Origin: Oscillospiraceae bacterium
Lineage (GTDB): Bacteria; Bacillota; Clostridia; UBA1381
Assembly: GCA_022508725.1 (NCBI GenBank)
Contig: JAFLUR010000001.1
Coordinates: 1-43,060, forward strand
Length of the DNA stretch: 43,060 bases
Reading direction: 5' to 3'
How positions within the stretch are numbered: the first letter of the stretch is position 1; each line of letters starts with the position of its first letter. Below the pieces are notes generated by a model that worked only from the letters and a program-made list of their open reading frames with translations, ran no database searches and was not told the origin of the DNA. Positions 2,751 to 43,060 of the stretch are shown here, one piece after another. The position numbers and the translations under genes were made by a program.

Positions 2751-2955
2751 TAGCATTATCAAAAAAAATTTAAAAAATTATTAAAAAATTGTACATTTTT
2801 TTTATGCACAATAGCAGAAAATGTTTTTATGTAAATATAACAATTGTTAAACCTGCATAAAAAAAAATATAAATACGCCAAATAATTACAAAAAATCATC
2901 CTGCCGCCGGCATAACCCCGAATTTAAGTAAACCGACCTTTCGGATATGTCGTTT

Positions 2956-3708
2956 TCAGCCTATAAGATCACTCATATTATACATACCGGCAGCTTTTCC
3001 CTTCATAAACTTGGCAGCCGACAGCGCTCCCACGGCAAACACCTCTCTCGATGCCGCATGATGCGATATTTCTATAACCTCGTCATTTCCCGCAAAGATA
3101 ATCCGGTGGTCGCCGACTATCGTTCCGCCTCTTACAGCATGTATGCCGATCTCGTTTTTGCGTCTTTTTCTTCTCACCGAATGACGGTCGTAAACAAATT
3201 CGGACGGATTTTTCAGTGTTTCGTCGATCGCCTCGGCTATGGCAAGCGCCGTTCCGCTGGGCGCGTCCAATTTTTGGTTATGGTGACGTTCGACTATTTC
3301 GATGTCAAAGCCGTCCTCCAGTATCTCCGCCGCCTTTTTTGCAAGCGCGGTTATCAGATTTATTCCCAGACTCATATTTGCCGAAAAGAATATCGGCACC
3401 GATTTTGACGTTTCCGAAAGCAAATCCCTCTCTTCCGCCGACAGACCGGTCGTCGCTATCACGGCAGGAATATTTTTTGCCTTTGCACAGTTCAAGATCC
3501 CCTCCAAAGAAGACGGATGCGAAAAATCGATTATAACATCGGCGGCAATATCACATTCCGCCGGGTCGGAAAAGACGGGATATGTGTTTTTTATGTTGTC
3601 GTTTATATCAAATCCCGCAACGATCTCCGCGTTTTCATCTTCCGCGGCAAGACGTGTTATCACCTGTCCCATTCTGCCGTTGCAGCCGTTCATTATTATC
3701 CTTGTCAT
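2956..3708 (-). CDS. dapB: 4-hydroxy-tetrahydrodipicolinate reductase
   Basis: 250 aa with N-terminal dinucleotide-binding MNGCNGRMGQ and the diagnostic ERHHNQKLDAPSGTA motif. ATG 3708 has an AAGGAG RBS. Confidence 0.95.
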   Translation of the reverse strand: MTRIIMNGCNGRMGQVITRLAAEDENAEIVAGFDINDNIKNTYPVFSDPAECDIAADVIIDFSHPSSLEGILNCAKAKNIPAVIATTGLSAEERDLLSETSKSVPIFFSANMSLGINLITALAKKAAEILEDGFDIEIVERHHNQKLDAPSGTALAIAEAIDETLKNPSEFVYDRHSVRRKRRKNEIGIHAVRGGTIVGDHRIIFAGNDEVIEISHHAASREVFAVGALSAAKFMKGKAAGMYNMSDLIG

Positions 3709-5969: not shown

Positions 5970-5999
5970 AAAACGATCTTCCTGTAATAAAGAAATAAA

Positions 6000-6213
6000 C
6001 GATAGCCCTCCATCAAATACCGGAAACACCGATTTATAAAAAAATCAATGCTTCCCAGATGACAGTCATATTGCTCTTAACAATATGCCCAACGAAAAAG
6101 CCCGCGGCGGCTTAACGTTTCGGCGTTTTCCCCTTTCGATTACCGTTCGGATAATATCTGCCGGCTGCCGCAGCCTGTGATAATCTACTCTTGAAAAACG
6201 CGCCTCTATCCGT
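6000..6213 (-). promoter_or_regulatory. lysine riboswitch (L-box) aptamer
   Basis: The minus strand reads GATAGAGGCGCG..CAAGAGTAG..CAGGCTGCGGCAGCC..CGAAAGGGGAAAACGCCGAAAC..ATGACTGTCATCTGGGAAGC.., matching the conserved L-box blocks (AGAGGCGC, GAGTA, GAAAGGGG, GCCGAA, ACTGTCA). There is a 14-bp P5-like hairpin (GGAAGCATTGATTT/AAATCGGTGTTTCC), and a closing CTATC pairs with the 5' GATAG. Location upstream of asd-dapA-dapB fits lysine control. Confidence 0.85.
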
Positions 6214-6231
6214 AAATATATTCTCAAATAT

Positions 6232-7971: not shown

Positions 7972-9035
7972 TTCCGTTCACCTCCGATAATCTCCTTTAT
8001 CCCGTCGGCAACTTCGGACGGAGTGGGAATAACGCCGCCCGTTCTTCCCATAAAATACACAGGCGCCTTTCCGTTCACCGCAAGACGCACATCCTCCACC
8101 ATCTGTCCCATGCTCATCTCGACCGAGAAGAACATCCTTGCCTTATCCGCCGCCTTATTCAAAGCCTCATAAGGGAACGGCCACAGTGTAATCGGGCGTA
8201 TCGTTCCGATTTTTATTCCCTCCGCCCGCAAGCCTTCGACCGCGGTCTGAACGACTCTGCTGGTCGTTCCGTAGGAACATACTATATATTCGGCATCATC
8301 CGCATAAATGCTTTCATACCGAACCTCATTGCTTTTTATCAAATCGTACTTCTTTTCTCTCTCCACAACCGTATATTCCAGATCCTCCGGAGTCATGTAG
8401 AGAGTATTTATGACGTTATGCTTTCTCCTTCCGCCCGTTCCGACGGTCGCCCACGGCTTTTCGGGGATATCGGGCTTGTAATCATCGTCAAACACAACAG
8501 GCTCCATCATCTGACCGAGCGTTCCGTCACCAAGTATCATGACCGGGCATCTGTAATTATCCGCCAGATCAAATGCCTTCATTGTAAGCTCGGACAGCTC
8601 CGGAACGGAGTTCGGCGCAAGCACGAGCAAATGATAATCGCCGTGTCCGCCGCCCTTTACCGCCTGAAAATAATCCGACTGAGCCGGCTGTATTCCTCCC
8701 AATCCGGGGCCTCCTCTTACCATATTAACGATAACACACGGCAGATCGGCTCCGGCAATATACGATATACCCTCCGCTTTAAGGCTTATTCCGGGGCTTG
8801 ACGAGCTTGTCATAACACGCGCTCCGGCACCCGCCGCGCCGTAAACCATATTTATCGCTGCCACCTCGCTCTCCGCCTGCAAAAACGTACCGCCTATCTT
8901 AGGCATTCTTTTTGCCATATATGCGGATATTTCGGTTTGCGGTGTAATCGGATAGCCGAAAAAGTGCCTGCATCCCGAGCGGATGGCGGCTTCGGCTATT
9001 GCCTCATTACCTTTCATCAAAACCTTTTTTTCCAC
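7968..9035 (-). CDS. 2-oxoacid:ferredoxin oxidoreductase, alpha subunit
   Basis: The MKGNEAIAEAAIRSGC..FFGYPITPQTE N-terminus is typical of OFOR alpha subunits. I prefer GTG 9035 (GGAGGA RBS 9 nt upstream) over the ORF-track TTG at 9086, so the 5' end is uncertain by 51 nt. Confidence 0.88.
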   Translation of the reverse strand: MEKKVLMKGNEAIAEAAIRSGCRHFFGYPITPQTEISAYMAKRMPKIGGTFLQAESEVAAINMVYGAAGAGARVMTSSSSPGISLKAEGISYIAGADLPCVIVNMVRGGPGLGGIQPAQSDYFQAVKGGGHGDYHLLVLAPNSVPELSELTMKAFDLADNYRCPVMILGDGTLGQMMEPVVFDDDYKPDIPEKPWATVGTGGRRKHNVINTLYMTPEDLEYTVVEREKKYDLIKSNEVRYESIYADDAEYIVCSYGTTSRVVQTAVEGLRAEGIKIGTIRPITLWPFPYEALNKAADKARMFFSVEMSMGQMVEDVRLAVNGKAPVYFMGRTGGVIPTPSEVADGIKEIIGGERK

Positions 9036-10502: not shown

Positions 10503-10786
10503 AATATCCCTCCCGAATACAATCAGTCAAATTCAGCGGGAGTATAGTCTCCCGCTGAGTATAAAAGCTTTCCGCCGTTACGAAAACACCGATTTATACT
10601 AATCCTTGAAACGTCAGCAGACAAAGCCGGCGGAAGAAATTTCGTATGTCAAGGCAGCTGCCGCAAGACAGGCGGAATTTATGTCGTTGGATTTGTCTGC
10701 TGTTGTTTCGAGGATCAGTATTAAAGGTAATCAAAAATATCCGGTGTTTCCTTATATATTATTCCGCGCCGCTTTGCCATGTTTCC

Positions 10787-12460
10787 TTATTTTTTCATTT
10801 TTTCCGCATGACTGAGCATTTCGGCGGCATGACGCACCGCCGCCTCGGTTATATCGCTTCCGTCGATTATCCTTGCAAGCTCGCATACACGGTTATCATG
10901 ATCGAGCCGTTTGAGGGAAGTCGATGTTTTTCCGTCTTTTACTTTTTTTTGTATAAGATAATGGGCGTCCGCCATCGCCGCGACCGACGCAAGATGGGTT
11001 ATGCATATGACCTGACGGTGATGCGCGATATGCGACAGCTTTGACGCGATTTTCTGCGCCGCGCTGCCCGATACGCCGGTGTCTATCTCGTCAAATATAA
11101 GCGTGTCAACATCGTCAACATCGGCAAGTATCGATTTTATCGAAAGCATGACCCTTGACAATTCTCCGCCGGAAGCCGTTTTTACAAGCGGCTTTAACGG
11201 TTCTCCGGCATTTGCGCTTATAAGGAATTCCACCTCGTCTCTTCCCGTGGGGGAAAAATCTCCGGAATTCTTTATATCCACGCAAAAGCCGGCGCCCTTC
11301 ATATCAAGCTCATGCATCGACCTTTCTATTTCTTTTCGCAAAACCTCGCCCGCTTTTTTCCTTGATGCGGTAAGCTTTGCCGCGATGCCGGAAAGCTCGG
11401 CAAGCTTTTTTTCATATTCCGCTTTAAGCTCCGCCTTAAGCTCATCGCCGTGCGTTATATTTTCAAGAGCTTTTTTCGCGTTTTCGCAAAATTCCAGAAC
11501 CGCCTCCGTCGTGCCGCCGTATTTCATCTTCAGCCTGTTTATAAGATCGAGTCTGCCCTCGATCTCATCAAGCATATTCTCGTCATATTCCACACCCCTC
11601 GCGTAATCGTTAAGCTCGCGGGTGCAGTCCTCAAGGTCATACATTATACCGGAAAGCTTATCGTAAATCGCCTGTATTTTCGTATCGTATTCGGTTATAT
11701 CTTCAAGCGCCGATACCGCAATGCTTATCCCGTCGTAAGCCGGACGTATTTCGGAAGAATCATACAAATTTCCGTAAGCCGTATTGACCGCAAGGCTTAT
11801 TTTCTCGGCATTCGATATAACCGCCCTCTGCTCCTCCAAAAGCTCATCCTCGCCCTTTTTGAGCTTGGCGTTCTCTATCTCACCGACCTGAAATGTCAAA
11901 AAATCGATTTTTTCCGCCCTTTCCTTTTCGTCCGTATCAAGCTCCTTTATTTTTCTTTTTATATCGGCAAGCTCTCCGTAGCATACGCCGTATTCCTCCA
12001 AAAGACTGCCGTTTCCCGCAAATTTATCAAGGAACTCGATATGCTTTGCCGGATTCAAGAGATTTTGATTATCCGGCTGACCGTGTATATTAACCAGCCT
12101 TTGTGCAACGGCGCGGAGCGTCGAAAGCGGTGTTATTGCGGAATTTATACGGCAGACGCTTTTCCCGTCCGCCGTTATATCGCGTCTTATTATTATCTGA
12201 CCGTCCTCCGCGTCTATTCCAAGCTCCTCAAAATACGGAAAGCCTTCTCCGACGTCAAATACAGCCGTAACGCTTGCCTTATCGGTTCCGTAACGCACAA
12301 GAGATTTGTTTGTTCTCGCTCCCGATATAATATTGACGGAATCTATTATCATCGATTTTCCCGCTCCGGTCTCGCCGGTAAGAACACACATTCCGTCCGC
12401 AAACTCAATCTCCGTTTTTTCTATCACGGCTATATTCTCAATACACAAATTTGTAAGCAT
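10787..12460 (-). CDS. recN: DNA repair protein RecN
   Basis: 557 aa, SMC-like: Walker A GETGAGKS, a long coiled-coil middle, signature ASGGELSR, and Walker B LIFDEIDTG. Confidence 0.95.
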   Translation of the reverse strand: MLTNLCIENIAVIEKTEIEFADGMCVLTGETGAGKSMIIDSVNIISGARTNKSLVRYGTDKASVTAVFDVGEGFPYFEELGIDAEDGQIIIRRDITADGKSVCRINSAITPLSTLRAVAQRLVNIHGQPDNQNLLNPAKHIEFLDKFAGNGSLLEEYGVCYGELADIKRKIKELDTDEKERAEKIDFLTFQVGEIENAKLKKGEDELLEEQRAVISNAEKISLAVNTAYGNLYDSSEIRPAYDGISIAVSALEDITEYDTKIQAIYDKLSGIMYDLEDCTRELNDYARGVEYDENMLDEIEGRLDLINRLKMKYGGTTEAVLEFCENAKKALENITHGDELKAELKAEYEKKLAELSGIAAKLTASRKKAGEVLRKEIERSMHELDMKGAGFCVDIKNSGDFSPTGRDEVEFLISANAGEPLKPLVKTASGGELSRVMLSIKSILADVDDVDTLIFDEIDTGVSGSAAQKIASKLSHIAHHRQVICITHLASVAAMADAHYLIQKKVKDGKTSTSLKRLDHDNRVCELARIIDGSDITEAAVRHAAEMLSHAEKMKK

Positions 12461-16760: not shown

Positions 16761-16805
16761 ACCGGTTTAAAGGTAATCAAAAAAATCAACATCGGAGGAT
16801 ATAAA

Positions 16806-22869: not shown

Positions 22870-23041
22870 TTGATGTGGAAGATTGATTTCGGAATATCTG
22901 TGTTCCTTAATCGATAAAATAAGTATACACTATGCAGTTTGACTTTATGAGTATAACATTTGCCTGCACTTATTTATAAAGTAAACGCGCATTATGGTAT
23001 ATATAAAAATATTTTTTAGAATTTTAGGGAGGAAAAACAAA

Positions 23042-24688
23042 ATGAAAATGTTAAAAAAAGCAGTTACCGCTGCTGTAACATTTGCTCTCGCCGTAAGCTC
23101 GGTAGCGGCTATGGCGTGCAGCAACGACTCATTCTTGGGCTATGATCAGGATAATATCTATTCAAGCAATTACGGCAAGCTCTATTACTGCCCGGAATCG
23201 AATACAACTTATGTAGACGGTTATGCGGGAAAGGTTGAATGGAAGCACGCTTATTTCGAGGCTGACTATCCGTTCCTTGAAGTTGTTGAGCTTTATCTCG
23301 ACGACAAACCGACAGGCAAAACTCAGTATGCGGGACTTCCCGATTCCGAAACGGTTTTGAAGCCGGAATTCTGGGAAGCAAAATATCCTTATCAGATCTA
23401 TTCAAGACTTTATGCAGGTCTTTCATCCGCAAACAAGGCAACCGACTGGGTTGTTAATTCGGGCGAAACCGAAAATGTTGTAGGCACATTTGATTACGCA
23501 GGTTTCGATATTTACGCTTGGGTAAACGGAGCTGTTAAAGATGTAAGCTTCCTTTACGCGGAGCATGCAGAGAAATTCGGTGTTGTTACCGATAACCCCG
23601 TAAACAACTTCGGTGTGGACGGCGGTATGTGGGCATTGGCTGACGCTTATTATTCGGCGGCTACATACTTGGGCGCCGACGGCAACTATTACTTCACCGA
23701 TGCGTTCCTTTCCGGCGATACAATGTTCAAGGATTTCGTTGATAATAGCATCGACAATTATGTAAGAAATATCAATTGGCTCAAGCTTGCAGGTCCCGAT
23801 TATTATACAGGCGGCACAAGATATGTTGATACCGTAAACGATATCATCAACGGCAAGCCGTGCACATGGTATGACGAGATTCTTATTCTCGCAGGCAATC
23901 CTGTTGATTATGAGTGGAAGACGGTAGGTTATGAGGCTGAATATCCGTACAGATATTATCAGATCCTTTATGTAGACGGTGTTCCCATGGACGGTGCATC
24001 AGTTGAATTGGTTGGTTCATGGTCTTTTGTTGAAGAAGACATCAACAAGACATATCCTTCGGAATCCGAGTACATCAAGACTGTTACCGTAGATCCCGTA
24101 ACCAACGCTCAGATATATGTTGATTCGGCTGTTCAGGTTCCCGCTAACGGTTTGATCAAGCAATACAAGCTTAACTCGGTAGCTGACAGATCGCACTTAC
24201 CTTATATCTTCAGATACACAGGCGGCTGCGCTTCGCCTAAGGTAGAGTGGAAGTATGCATTCACAGAAGCTGCTTATCCGCACGCTATAATCGAGCAGTT
24301 GTTCCTCGACGGTAAAGCAACAGAGTATTGGCGTAAATCCGGTGAGAACGCTGCTTCGAAACCGGAGCTTGAGTACAACTCAAACAATCCGAGATATTAC
24401 AAAGTAAATATCACAAGTCCGTATGCTGAAGAGATCCTTCAGAAGTTTGTATCATCATATTATCCGCTTCACGATTATAACTGCATCGTAGCAGGTGATG
24501 ATTATTACATTCCGTTCTCTGTAACACAGCTTTATGACGGTCATACAAAGTATACATGGTATTCGACACAGGTTGACAATGTAGCTAAGGTTGTTGCTGA
24601 AGATTTGGGTGTAAAGAGCGATGATATCGAATTCCTCGGTGCTTTCTATGATTACGCTGTTCAGCAGGGTATGATTTATGTTCAATAA
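23042..24688 (+). CDS. secreted (possibly lipid-anchored) Tyr-rich protein of unknown function with three internal repeats
   Basis: Signal peptide MKMLKKAVTAAVTFALAVSSVAAMAC with a GGGAGGA RBS. Three copies of a ~30-aa module: KVEWKHAYFEADYPFLEVVELYLDDKPTGK, DYEWKTVGYEAEYPYRYYQILYVDGVPMDG and KVEWKYAFTEAAYPHAIIEQLFLDGKATEY. I recognise no family. Confidence 0.75.
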   Translation: MKMLKKAVTAAVTFALAVSSVAAMACSNDSFLGYDQDNIYSSNYGKLYYCPESNTTYVDGYAGKVEWKHAYFEADYPFLEVVELYLDDKPTGKTQYAGLPDSETVLKPEFWEAKYPYQIYSRLYAGLSSANKATDWVVNSGETENVVGTFDYAGFDIYAWVNGAVKDVSFLYAEHAEKFGVVTDNPVNNFGVDGGMWALADAYYSAATYLGADGNYYFTDAFLSGDTMFKDFVDNSIDNYVRNINWLKLAGPDYYTGGTRYVDTVNDIINGKPCTWYDEILILAGNPVDYEWKTVGYEAEYPYRYYQILYVDGVPMDGASVELVGSWSFVEEDINKTYPSESEYIKTVTVDPVTNAQIYVDSAVQVPANGLIKQYKLNSVADRSHLPYIFRYTGGCASPKVEWKYAFTEAAYPHAIIEQLFLDGKATEYWRKSGENAASKPELEYNSNNPRYYKVNITSPYAEEILQKFVSSYYPLHDYNCIVAGDDYYIPFSVTQLYDGHTKYTWYSTQVDNVAKVVAEDLGVKSDDIEFLGAFYDYAVQQGMIYVQ

Positions 24689-24873
24689 GAGCAGGCAAAT
24701 ATAATAGGGTAATATTCCTATTATAAAAAAGACTCATTAATATTAAAGAAAATACCGTTCTGTTATATTTTATATATGGCAGATCGGTATTTTTAATAAT
24801 GAATAGTATATAATAATTATTATGCACGGTTTTTGATATGTTATCCCTCTATTGCAGTTTTCAATATATCTTA

Positions 24874-25019
24874 GGAAACACTGATGTAAAGGTAATCAAA
24901 AAATAATTTACGAAAAAATATACGCTATTCCCGGTTGCATGAGCGACCGGTAAAACGGAGTTTTACGACCGGTCCCGGTTGCCAAATTATTTTTTGATAT
25001 TGATTTATTCAGTATTTCC
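24874..25019. repeat. palindromic intergenic repeat element, family B (146 bp, self-complementary arms)
   Basis: The left arm GGAAACACTGATGTAAAGGTAATCAAAAAATAATT (24874..24908) matches 26/35 positions of the reverse complement of the right arm (24985..25019). The centre holds one inverted copy of the 44-bp unit, with the hairpin GACCGGTAAAAC..GTTTTACGACCGGTC. The first 53 nt recur at 43008..43060. Confidence 0.75.
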
Positions 25020-25116
25020 CTTATATGCTGCCCAAAACCGGAGGAATAAATACGGCAGATAAATTTCGATGCAAATTCCGTTTTAAATAAATATTTTGGA
25101 GATGGATTTTAATACT

Positions 25117-26040
25117 ATGAAAAAGACTATATCAAAAAGTATAACAATTTTTATCCTTTTATTTTCATTAACGATCCCGCAAGTTTCGGCGGCATCCGGA
25201 TTATTGATTCCCGTAGCGGGCTATTCTTCGCTCACAAACGACAGCAAAGATAAATATTACGCGATAATACGATATTATTCATCCCTGCGCGTTCCGGGAA
25301 TTATGTACCACAAAATAACATCCGACCCGAATGAATGGTCTGTATATTCGATATCTCCGCAAACGTTGCGTGAAGATTTTCAGACAATGAAAAATTTGGG
25401 CTATACTCCCATAACTCTTTCGGAATATGCCGAAATATTGTACGGCTACAGCTGTTTGAGTAATAACACCGCAGACATAGACTATCTGTACAATCTTGTT
25501 ACGGCTCATCCAAAGCCTATTTTGATAACTGCGGATGACGGTTATCTGGGAATTTATACAGATTTCATGCCCTTATTAAAAGAATTCGGATTTAAAGCCA
25601 ATTTTATGATATACGGAGAGGTCGTTGACTCAAATCATCCGGAATATGTTTCATGGGAACAAATTACCGAAATGCAGCAGTCAGGGCTTGTTGAGTTTGG
25701 AAATCACACCTATTCGCTTCATAATTATCCCAACTCGGATCTTATCGGGCTTTATTTTTCACAGCCCGAATTTTGCAAAAATGATATTGAATTGAACAGA
25801 GCAAAGCTTGAAGCGGCGACAGGCGTACCGTGTACAACATTCGCTTATCCATATGGTATAAGGAATACCTTTTCAAGTGCGATAATAGATCAATGCGGAT
25901 ATACAAAAATATTGAATACCGATTACAGAACCAATATTATAGGCAGCGGAATTTATAATATAGCGCGCGTAAATCGTGATAACACCACAACATCTCAGGC
26001 TTTCTTTGCGAGATTATCCTCTCTTAAAGCGACGGTATAG
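25117..26040 (+). CDS. polysaccharide deacetylase (CE4 / NodB-homology) with N-terminal signal/anchor
   Basis: Hydrophobic N-terminus SITIFILLFSLTIPQVSA and NodB motifs ITADDGYLG and GNHTYSLH. The gene is visibly AT-richer than its surroundings. The start is uncertain between ATG 25117 (preferred), ATG 25102 and the TTG at 25096 from the ORF track. Confidence 0.82.
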   Translation: MKKTISKSITIFILLFSLTIPQVSAASGLLIPVAGYSSLTNDSKDKYYAIIRYYSSLRVPGIMYHKITSDPNEWSVYSISPQTLREDFQTMKNLGYTPITLSEYAEILYGYSCLSNNTADIDYLYNLVTAHPKPILITADDGYLGIYTDFMPLLKEFGFKANFMIYGEVVDSNHPEYVSWEQITEMQQSGLVEFGNHTYSLHNYPNSDLIGLYFSQPEFCKNDIELNRAKLEAATGVPCTTFAYPYGIRNTFSSAIIDQCGYTKILNTDYRTNIIGSGIYNIARVNRDNTTTSQAFFARLSSLKATV

Positions 26041-26044
26041 CTAA

Positions 26045-26079
26045 GGAAATACTGAATAAATCAATATCAAAAAATAATT
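26045..26079. repeat. 35-bp arm of family B element, perfect inverted copy of 24985..25019
   Basis: GGAAATACTGAATAAATCAATATCAAAAAATAATT is the exact reverse complement of 24985..25019. It begins 5 nt after the deacetylase stop codon. Confidence 0.9.
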
Positions 26080-26086
26080 CAGCCAT

Positions 26087-26210
26087 CTGCCCGGGTTGGT
26101 CGTAAAACTATGTTTTACTGCTCACCCATGCTGCCCGGGTTGGTCGTAAAACTATGTTTTACTGCTCACCCATGCTGCCCGAGCCGGTCGTAAAACTATG
26201 TTTTACTGCT
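26087..26210. repeat. 44-bp tandem direct repeat, 2.8 copies
   Basis: The unit CTGCCCGGGTTGGTCGTAAAACTATGTTTTACTGCTCACCCATG occurs at 26087..26130 and identically at 26131..26174. A diverged 36-nt third copy follows at 26175..26210. Each unit contains the hairpin GTAAAAC-tat-GTTTTAC. Confidence 0.9.
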
Positions 26211-26226
26211 ATAAAAACGCACAAAT

Positions 26227-26258
26227 AAAACTCTTGAAATCGAATTTCAAGAGTTTTT
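26227..26258. terminator. bidirectional intrinsic terminator
   Basis: AAAACTCTTGAAAT-cga-ATTTCAAGAGTTTT, a perfect 14-bp stem with T-runs on both strands. It lies between the deacetylase cassette and the convergent SLH gene. Confidence 0.85.
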
Positions 26259-26296
26259 GCCGTTTATACGGTTTAAAATAATCTTCCCGCTTTCTT

Positions 26297-26890
26297 TTAT
26301 TTTCCGATATCATATAAGCGCACGATCGTAACTATCGCCTGTTCCTTTGTATATCTGCTTTTCGGGGCAAATATGCCGTCGGACATACCGTTCATTACAC
26401 CGCAGCTGTACATTTTATATACATATGACCTTGCCCATTCCGAAATATTCGCATCATCGTCAAACACAAAGCCTGTGGATGTGCCGCTTATATCCATGAA
26501 CATTGCAATTCTTGCGAGTATTGTCGCCGCCTCTTCGCGGGTTATACTATCATTCGGCGCAAAATATTTCTCGGATTTACCGTTCACTATACCCATTGTA
26601 TGCAGCGCATTGACCGCCTTAGAATCGGTATCTTTGAATACTCCCGAGGATATTTTGGTATCTATCCCCCATTTTAAAAGCATATTATATACTATTTCGC
26701 AAAAATCGCCTCGTGTTATATATTCCGTATATCCCGACTGCATACCGCTGTCTAAAAATCCCTCATTGATCGCTGTTTTTATATATTTGGAAGACCATTC
26801 CGACGACTCCGAAACGGCATATACAGACTGAGTATACGGTCTGGCTGTGAAAATCATAACAGCCGTCAACAATATAAAAGCATACCTCAA
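26297..26890 (-). CDS. small S-layer-homology (SLH) domain protein (signal peptide + three SLH repeats only)
   Basis: Three SLH-like repeats: SEWSSKYIKTAINEGFL...ITRGDFCEIVYNML, FKDTDSKAVNALHTMGIVNGKSEKYFAPNDSITREEAATILARI and ISEWARSYVYKMYSCGVMNGMSDGIFAPKSRYTKEQAIVTIVRL. TTG 26890, with GGGAGG 7 nt upstream, is preferred over the ORF-track start at 26992. Confidence 0.78.
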   Translation of the reverse strand: MRYAFILLTAVMIFTARPYTQSVYAVSESSEWSSKYIKTAINEGFLDSGMQSGYTEYITRGDFCEIVYNMLLKWGIDTKISSGVFKDTDSKAVNALHTMGIVNGKSEKYFAPNDSITREEAATILARIAMFMDISGTSTGFVFDDDANISEWARSYVYKMYSCGVMNGMSDGIFAPKSRYTKEQAIVTIVRLYDIGK

Positions 26891-30606: not shown

Positions 30607-30961
30607 TATTTGACCTCCTTAATATAAATATTGTCCAATCCCAAGCATAATAAGCTTCCCCTGTCAAAACCGATTTCCGGCTTTTGCCGCGAGGCATCCG
30701 GTCTTATGCCTTAATTGGAAACCCTATATTTATATTATATTTGATTTTCTTAAATTTTGCAATAGAAAATTTCAAATTTTTATTGAAATTATATTATTTT
30801 TTTTATTTTTTTTGTGGAATATAACCAATTTACATTTTTTGCATACAATATATTTACATTTCTGCATTTTTCGTTCTTTTTTTCTGTTGATATTTTAAAC
30901 ATAATTTACATAAAACATACAGACTGTTTTTGTATACATTGACTATTCACATTCAACAAAA

Positions 30962-43007: not shown

Positions 43008-43060
43008 GGAAACACTGATTTAAAGGTAATCAAAAAATAATTTACGAAAAAATATACGCT
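43008..43060. repeat. second copy of the left arm of the family B element (truncated by the window end)
   Basis: GGAAACACTGATTTAAAGGTAATCAAAAAATAATTTACGAAAAAATATACGCT is identical to 24874..24926 except for one base (T vs G). It is in the same orientation, and the window stops inside it. Confidence 0.85.

Follow-up and report, generated by a model that had tools for sequence, protein, structure and literature searches.

Does a perfect inverted repeat around a single gene mark a genetic switch, a mobile cassette or an RNA structure, or can it arise from something that has little to do with the gene it encloses? The question is raised by a locus in the genome of an Oscillospiraceae bacterium (Clostridia, UBA1381; GenBank assembly GCA_022508725.1), where a gene for a carbohydrate esterase family 4 (CE4) polysaccharide deacetylase lies between two inverted copies of a 35-nt sequence. 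Our analysis covers positions 1 to 43,060 of contig JAFLUR010000001.1, a stretch hereafter called the window. A first-pass annotation of this DNA had taken the gene to be the cargo of an invertible or mobilisable unit, or else had its 5' and 3' untranslated regions (UTRs) pairing into a long stem. We consider it probable instead that two members of a modular interspersed repeat family, in opposite orientation, occupy the two intergenic regions that flank a resident deacetylase gene. By its terminal inverted repeats (TIRs) the family appears to resemble miniature inverted-repeat transposable elements, or MITEs, and by its order of inner arm, variable number of hairpin units, spacer and outer arm it appears to resemble the BOX elements of streptococci. 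The 35-nt inverted repeat would then be a by-product of family membership and not a recombination site serving the deacetylase. The case is a cautionary one, for a perfect inverted repeat around one gene mimics a switch or a cassette, and it was the comparative context that pointed to a dispersed repeat beside an old resident gene.

The inverted repeat itself is beyond doubt. Positions 24985-25019 are the exact reverse complement of 26045-26079 (35/35, with 0 mismatches), as had been reported; with up to three mismatches allowed, the 35-mer matched exactly twice in the window and not once in 100 dinucleotide-preserving shuffles. Inverted homology continues outward, at 85% complementarity between 24968-25019 and 26045-26096 and 78% between 24930-24970 and 26098-26138, and a gapped local alignment of the reverse-complemented left flank with the right flank joined 24937-25023 to 26042-26131 with a score of 92, against a shuffle maximum of 28 (n = 200). 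The total extent is about 87-90 nt, rather than the approximately 100 bp first estimated, and consists of the 35-nt perfect core plus some 52 nt at about 75% identity with indels. The right copy of the core begins at the fifth nucleotide past the TAG stop codon of the deacetylase (26038-26040), immediately preceded by a TAA in alignment with the orthologues' own stop codon, and the left copy ends 97 nt ahead of the ATG at 25117. The earlier description of these spacings (5 nt after the stop, about 100 nt before the start) is borne out, as is that of 44-bp units on the right, where three stand in tandem.

What had been overlooked is that the left flank is a self-contained element (Table 1), since the arm recurs at its outer end as a second, inverted copy of 75% similarity. 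The two ends form TIRs of 36 nt with 75% complementarity (24874-24909 against 24984-25019), and the element, read as its reverse complement, runs from the inner arm through a 6-nt linker, one hairpin unit and a spacer of about 20 nt to the outer arm. Folded as DNA it gives one long hairpin (-27.8 kcal/mol, z = -5.4); the hairpin unit within it, matched by nhmmer at 24934-24978 (E = 3.4e-13), has a predicted fold of -19.7 to -22.7 kcal/mol, and the arms are AT-rich. CTTA stands on both sides of the element (24870-24873 and 25020-25023) and is possibly a 4-bp target-site duplication. No open reading frame (ORF) of at least 40 amino acids occurs in any frame of the left (146 bp) or the right (174 bp) element. 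The length of the left element, its imperfect TIRs, its AT-rich arms, its strong fold, its non-coding character and its paired CTTA are together hallmarks of a MITE.

The right element repeats the inner arm, followed by a 7-nt linker and three hairpin units, so that both elements share the A-(B)n-C plan of BOX elements as far as they go: arm, one unit, spacer and outer arm on the left, arm and three units on the right. It has one terminus only, and neither a pattern scan nor nhmmer found a second arm for it within the window. Each 44-nt unit holds an imperfect palindrome of about 35 nt, GGGTTGGTCGTAAAAC-TAT-GTTTTACTGCTCACCC, with a predicted fold of -14.8 kcal/mol per unit, and the array begins 47 nt past the deacetylase stop codon. 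The hairpin at 26227-26257 is likely, from its sequence, to be a bidirectional intrinsic terminator common to the convergent deacetylase and SLH genes. Its position beyond the array places the right element between stop codon and terminator, inside the 3'UTR; the analogous terminator of related genomes sits much nearer the stop codon. A protein-database search with the longest, and only, open frame across the unit array returned no matches, and thus no spurious ORF calls on further copies.

Table 1. Coordinates of the deacetylase gene, the repeat modules around it and associated features in the window
Feature	Positions	Strand	Details
Conserved non-coding block after the upstream gene, outside the repeat	24683..24814	+	hairpin, GACTCATTAATATT, terminator, TATAAT
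Left element, complete MITE-like repeat	24874..25019		146 bp; outer arm, spacer, one reverse hairpin unit, inner arm
Outer arm ('C-type')	24874..24909	+	GGAAACACTGATGTAAAGGTAATCAAAAAATAATTT; about 75% similar to inner arm; nhmmer E = 1.9e-7
Single hairpin unit	24930..24984	-	about 75% identical to right-hand units; core GGTCGTAAAAC-TCC-GTTTTAC
Inner arm ('A-type'), left copy	24985..25019	-	AATTATTTTTTGATATTGATTTATTCAGTATTTCC; exact reverse complement of 26045-26079
CE4 polysaccharide deacetylase gene	25117..26040	+	signal-peptide-like N-terminus; Pfam PF01522, E = 6.7e-23
Inner arm ('A-type'), right copy	26045..26079	+	exact reverse complement of 24985-25019
Right element	26045..26218		174 bp; inner arm and three hairpin units, no second arm
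Three tandem 44-nt units	26087..26218	+	two identical; third 77% identical, diverging at 3' end
Perfect 14-bp hairpin	26227..26257		A-run on one side, T-run on the other; inverted-repeat scan
Third copy, outer arm and spacer	43008..43060	+	52/53 identical to 24874-24926; E = 1.3e-7
Possible degenerate remnant	10713..10750		..TAAAGGTAATCAAAAATA..GGTGTTTCC, then TTATAT; 37 nt downstream of recN stop; weak, nhmmer E = 9

The modules are dispersed as well as paired. A third copy, also overlooked before, lies 17 kb from the deacetylase locus at the end of the window; the contig stops exactly where this copy and the left element diverge, a kind of break that multi-copy repeats produce. In the other available assembly (L035 1-195), which reads through it into the last codons (..GGY, then stop) of a convergent ORF, the third copy abuts or overlaps that ORF's stop codon. 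Arms are found at 24874, 24985 (minus strand), 26045 and 43008, and the hairpin unit once on the left and three times on the right, so that dispersed copies of the kind expected of a MITE occupy three loci in 43 kb (24874, 26045 and 43008), in addition to the possible remnant. Because the outer arms agree at 52 of 53 positions over a distance of 17 kb, near-identity of the modules is a property of the family and is not special to the deacetylase pair; the 35-nt inverted repeat would be perfect because the arm module that both copies share is young or has undergone gene conversion. YTWA is the pattern that the copies' flanks resemble (CTTA, CTAA, TTAA), and such a preference would naturally place insertions at or near stop codons. 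As a separate observation, the 9 nt ahead of two of the arm copies (24865-24873, TATATCTTA; 26036-26044, TATAGCTAA) are 7/9 identical, and the remaining arm copies are preceded by TTAAG or CAG; the 7/9 match may reflect an AT-rich YTWA-type target preference, or else coincidence. There is also an exact, statistically weak 17-nt match to the outer-arm core, TAAAGGTAATCAAAAAA, at 16768-16784, between U32 peptidase and amine-oxidase genes.

The deacetylase gene, for its part, has an ancestry of its own. Among about 5.8 billion proteins it has only four close relatives, at 75, 72, 72 and 66% identity, from four lineages (L031; L032, assembly GCA_964561265.1, a different species; L033; L034) with about 75% nucleotide identity to the window. 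In all four the same gene of about 550 amino acids, without a Pfam match, lies directly upstream in the same orientation, and in L031 and L034 the SLH, substrate-binding protein (SBP) and permease genes are convergent after the deacetylase, as in the window. Divergence of the deacetylase from its orthologues (72-75% protein identity) is like that of its neighbours, which stand at 76-79% for the upstream gene, 73% for GH2, 81% for SBP and 54-55% for SLH. The first-pass annotation had found the gene visibly AT-richer than its surroundings. A difference exists, the guanine-plus-cytosine (GC) fraction being 0.387 in the deacetylase, 0.440 in the gene upstream of it and 0.412 in the one downstream, but it is modest, and orthologues that lack the repeats show the same offset (0.33 against 0.40 in L031, 0.39 against 0.44 in L034). 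Horizontal transfer of the deacetylase, considered for its low GC, was rejected on this ground. Conserved synteny, neighbour-like divergence and a shared GC offset mean that the gene was neither captured nor imported; by sequence comparison it is a vertically inherited resident, not the cargo that it had been taken for, and the repeats are additions to its intergenic regions.

Those intergenic regions are longer in the window than elsewhere. On the left the distance is 428 nt, against 190-331 nt in relatives, and on the right 257 nt, against 75 nt (L031) and 124 nt (L034). The left element was not found in the orthologous intergenic regions of L031, L032, L033 and L034, nor were the right arm and units found downstream of the deacetylase in L031 and L034. 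As an observation in its own right, the protein of about 550 amino acids (22994-24688, no Pfam match) and the CE4 deacetylase (25117-26040) form a co-oriented pair in all five lineages, which persists even in L033, where the SLH/ABC block has shifted to the other side and two LytR-CpsA-Psr genes are neighbours; the conservation may point to a joint function in anchoring cell-wall glycopolymer or SLH proteins.

Sequences related to the arm do occur past the deacetylase gene in two of the relatives. An inverted-repeat element of about 110 nt starts at the deacetylase stop codon of L032, and both of its arms align to the arm of the window with scores of 33-38, which none of 588 background windows and none of 1000 shuffles reached; in L031 the sequence past the stop codon is also arm-like, but more weakly so (score 27, 99th-99.9th percentile). 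In L032 a further arm-like sequence, GGAAATACATTGAAACGGAATCAAAAATAATT, lies 2.9 kb upstream at 8025-8056 on the minus strand, between GH2 and the 550-aa gene. Its match is weak (nhmmer E = 0.57, not significant alone); it is possibly a solo arm and, if real, would suggest that the family is dispersed in that species too. The related arms of L032 and L031 make the repeat family older than the species of the window, and the position just past the deacetylase stop codon would be either that of an old insertion or a preferred target.

Strain-level evidence comes from the only other assembly of the species (ENA ERZ27293321, contig k141_1346276), which is 99.95-99.98% identical to the window over 20.8 kb. 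This near-identical strain carries both elements, the left one 100% identical, and has the deacetylase in the same orientation; both assemblies span the deacetylase region unbroken. Exact look-ups of both flanking proteins, aimed at strains with a different middle, returned only this contig. The species is also present in SRR13619860. The one difference in the repeats is the number of hairpin units, three in the window and two in ERZ27293321, which is direct evidence that the unit array is length-variable between near-identical strains. Copy number varies likewise in the boxB arrays of pneumococcal BOX elements (PMC3049150).

If the repeat-family reading is right, the elements would spread, or would once have spread, as they transposed in trans, perhaps into YTWA-like targets close to stop codons, and the unit array would alter its length via slippage or unequal crossing-over. 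Their most likely present effect on the deacetylase mRNA would be that hairpins in the 3'UTR, perhaps with some pairing of 5' and 3' regions, alter its stability or processing. What is new is a previously undescribed modular element with MITE-like and BOX-like traits in a rarely sampled lineage, a modest addition to the known repertoire. Its hairpin array, being variable between near-identical strains, could serve as a strain marker, and the repeat may affect the expression of genes whose UTRs it occupies.

Several points weigh against this reading. The sample amounts to about three and a half copies from 43 kb of genome, and exact and degenerate scans of genome, metagenome and viral collections gave no further convincing ones. 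A target-site duplication is seen at the left element only, with none evident at the third copy or the right element. No partner transposase is known, the window is without a transposase, and plasmids and phages gave no match. No strain-level empty site was found, and the relatives, at their level of nucleotide identity, are too diverged to fix an exact insertion point. Lastly, the post-stop arm in L032, and weakly that in L031, suggests that the right arm may be old at its site, and gene conversion or re-insertion would then be needed to account for its 35/35 match with the left arm; the identity could instead reflect selection on the pair.

A pairing of the two UTRs, which the first-pass annotation had listed, is compatible with a dispersed repeat family. 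Here the mRNA would start upstream of the left element, and the arms in its 5' and 3'UTRs would form a perfect 35-bp double-stranded RNA, extended by unit-to-unit pairing, that circularises the deacetylase message; the duplex would be an RNase III substrate or an exonuclease shield, setting mRNA half-life or translation. We think this rather unlikely as an explanation, though folding makes a long duplex thermodynamically plausible. Minimum free energy and centroid folds of 24860-26262 pair both arms, and the left unit with a right unit; the two elements co-fold at -131.2 kcal/mol, against -45.9 and -45.2 separately (sum -91.1), and the arm duplex is predicted at -43.5 kcal/mol, whereas pairing of the left element's own arms gives -23.2. 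If transcription ends at the 26227-26257 hairpin, the right element is certainly in the 3'UTR. As for the 5' side, a strict consensus scan showed no convincing promoter in the 97 nt between left arm and ATG, and a perfect TATAAT stands upstream of the left element (24809-24814), where relatives have -10-like hexamers at the same position. It is a candidate deacetylase promoter, although the strict scan gave no plus-strand promoter there, and its use would put the left element in the 5'UTR. Correia elements provide a documented case of transcribed MITE hairpins being processed by RNase III (PMC2649163). Yet the left element is able to fold locally during transcription, when the polymerase is still about 1 kb short of the 3' arm, and a terminating ribosome would cover the first bases of that arm, which lies 4 nt past the stop codon. 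The relatives manage without either element, which makes any effect lineage-specific, maybe neutral or mildly deleterious, and argues against a designed regulator. A real regulatory effect of the predicted pairing, arising as a consequence of the insertions rather than as their reason, has in our view a similarly modest chance. It is highly improbable, on the other hand, that no mobile element is involved and that the arm of about 35 nt is a cis-acting site, such as a protein-binding motif or one carrying an outward -35 hexamer, that recurs after stop codons, with the inverted pair arising locally by duplication or gene conversion. The arm-like sequence after the stop codon in L032, and weakly in L031, does suggest age at the site, solo arms occur (43008 and, more weakly, L032 8025-8056), and the arms carry outward-facing TTGATT/TTTACA -35-like hexamers. 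The paired termini of the left element and its CTTA/CTTA flank are, however, typical of transposition, copies near-identical within a genome and diverged between species are what recent spread would leave, the contig break indicates further copies, and no known regulator motif or RNA family matches.

The more dramatic readings concern movement of the gene itself. In one of them, 25020-26044 would be flipped by a recombinase from another part of the genome, or by RecA by way of the 35-bp identity; the deacetylase would be uncoupled from an outside promoter, and wall deacetylation would become phase-variable. Trans-acting invertases are known from other gut and anaerobic bacteria, just one gene stands between the copies of the perfect 35-nt repeat, the enclosed segment yielded no strong promoter, and arms that match at 35/35 beside adjoining homology of about 75% are as expected if recombination maintains their identity. 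Identity of 52/53 over 17 kb, however, shows that the arms need no inversion to stay alike, and the arms, being modules of a dispersed repeat, are found on their own as well (43008 and the possible solo arm of L032). Both independent assemblies show one orientation, and this, judged by the partner gene in five lineages, is the ancestral one; both assemblers also passed through the region unbroken. To the left no recombinase lies within 25 kb, and to the right none within 17 kb: neither the Pfam search of 25 window ORFs nor the precomputed Pfam assignments of the remaining large genes (L011, L035) held a recombinase or transposase domain, in agreement with the earlier reading of the window on this point. 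With one orientation, dispersed arms and no recombinase nearby, we regard the proposed switch as very unlikely, and give as little weight to the broader idea that a dispersed MITE-like repeat was co-opted to make a phase-variable cell-wall deacetylase, of which UTR pairing would be the milder version. Were inversion true, a mobile repeat would have been recruited as a whole-gene phase switch for cell-wall modification, which would be considerably more interesting. The chance that the deacetylase was captured between two MITE copies, as a composite cassette mobilised by a transposase in trans, seems close to negligible. The flanking repeats are indeed MITE-like, as the first-pass annotation held, and MITE pairs flanking mobilised cargo are documented, for example around class 1 integrons in Acinetobacter (PMC10969869). 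Capture is nevertheless contradicted at several levels, and the reading is largely refuted by synteny: the gene keeps its ancestral position and orientation in four other lineages and has diverged like its neighbours. By the termini that the copies define, the gene also lies outside both elements, the left one ending in ...ATTTCC at 25019 and the right one beginning with GGAAAT... at 26045; the right element lacks a second terminus, which leaves only one competent outer end; no duplication flanks the composite; and searches found no arm-flanked gene elsewhere.

To set the repeat family among known systems, we compared it with five of them, as analogues; the likenesses are ones of design, and we do not claim membership of the BOX, Correia or REP/BIME families. 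BOX elements (boxA-(boxB)n-boxC; Streptococcus pneumoniae and S. suis) come closest in plan, in that differing, complementary end modules enclose a tandem module of about 45 nt (44 nt here), with a copy number of the internal module that varies among strains, as here (three against two). They are intergenic, are often co-transcribed as 3' adducts, and have an internal module predicted to fold alone, all of which may be said of the present elements (PMC3049150). BOX elements, however, exceed 100 copies, against the three loci sampled in 43 kb here, in another and uncultured host lineage; the right copy here is without its second end module; and the likeness drawn here is one of architecture.

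Correia elements of Neisseria (Correia repeat enclosed elements, CREE) and prokaryotic MITEs at large resemble the left element in their length of about 150 bp, TIRs of about 26-36 nt, AT-rich arms and short flanking duplication, a possible one here (PMC2649163; PMC10969869), as well as in their gene-adjacent position, their outward -35-like hexamers and hairpins that, when transcribed, would be potential RNase III substrates. CREE differ in having a TA duplication and a site for integration host factor, neither of which is shown here, and the expandable tandem hairpin array present here is unusual in MITEs. Repetitive extragenic palindromic (REP) sequences and bacterial interspersed mosaic elements (BIMEs) of Proteobacteria share with the right element an arrangement of imperfect palindromes of about 35 nt, arrayed in the 3'UTR between stop codon and terminator. 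REPs in this post-stop position stabilise the upstream mRNA and can affect translation termination. The units here are in direct tandem and not alternating, nothing in REPs corresponds to the arms, the unit lacks the GTAG head, and the window has no IS200/IS605-like gene.

Invertons, like this locus, have a segment bracketed by perfect inverted repeats for which a recombinase in trans is conceivable. Typically they flip a promoter or part of a gene and show both orientations in reads, whereas here a whole resident gene is seen in one orientation; their inverted repeats are usually unique to a switch or to the regulon of one invertase, whereas here they are modules of a dispersed repeat with no recombinase nearby. 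The MITE-flanked composites of Acinetobacter class 1 integrons likewise have cargo between two MITE-like copies (PMC10969869), but there both MITEs are complete, an outer duplication is present and the cargo is found in new contexts, whereas at the present locus the right copy is incomplete, the termini are turned towards the gene and the context of the gene is ancestral.

Searches beyond the species found little. The exact 35-mer had 0 matches in representative genomes, the degenerate arm pattern had 0 matches in viral contigs, and BLAST returned no match in plasmids for either element, nor in phages for the left one. A hairpin-core pattern (GGTCGTAAAACNNNNGTTTTAC) gave 10 matches in genomes from unrelated taxa, at chance level; that in L004 falls inside coding sequence, and L003 shows only weak resemblance (nhmmer E = 0.0016). 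The degenerate arm pattern matched 19 times in JGI metagenomes, all of them low-complexity chance matches that do not continue into an element, and within the window an arm-like match at 30783-30811 was rejected as low-complexity promoter DNA. Rfam holds no family matching the arm or the unit at gathering threshold, and when 24690-26300 was scanned permissively the result was only hairpin noise of a generic kind, which fell far short of threshold. Readings of the array as an integron attC site, a CRISPR array or a riboswitch were dropped for want of an integrase, of spacers between the tandem units and of an Rfam match. The dearth of further copies fits a rarely sampled lineage; all proteins of the window are singletons in clustering at 90% identity, and the lineage is poorly sampled.

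Other features were noticed along the way. The window's only Rfam match is a lysine riboswitch (RF00168, 98 bits) at 5995-6216 on the minus strand, upstream of asd-dapA-dapB, an ordinary feature. In L032, at about 11095-11230, a near-consensus promoter (TTGACA-17-TATAAT) precedes a structured transcript of about 100 nt with a terminator, which carries a unit-like hairpin, TAAAACGGTTTTGACCG, at its 5' end; it may be a small RNA, perhaps related to the hairpin unit of the repeat family. In L034, a 70-nt tandem duplication (2899-3038, 83% identity) takes in the SLH gene's 3' end along with the terminator region. Between the 550-aa gene and the left element, a conserved block (24683-24805) comprises TCAATAAGAGCAGGCAAA, a hairpin that shows stem covariation from one lineage to another, the invariant GACTCATTAATATT and, at 24742-24800, an intrinsic terminator. 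Its counterparts lie at 1395-1545 in L031, 9802-9915 in L032, 1688-1800 in L034 and 9682-9790 in L033, with an identity well above the approximately 75% nucleotide identity of the coding flanks, and it could be a 3'UTR or attenuator-like element that links the 550-aa gene and the deacetylase.

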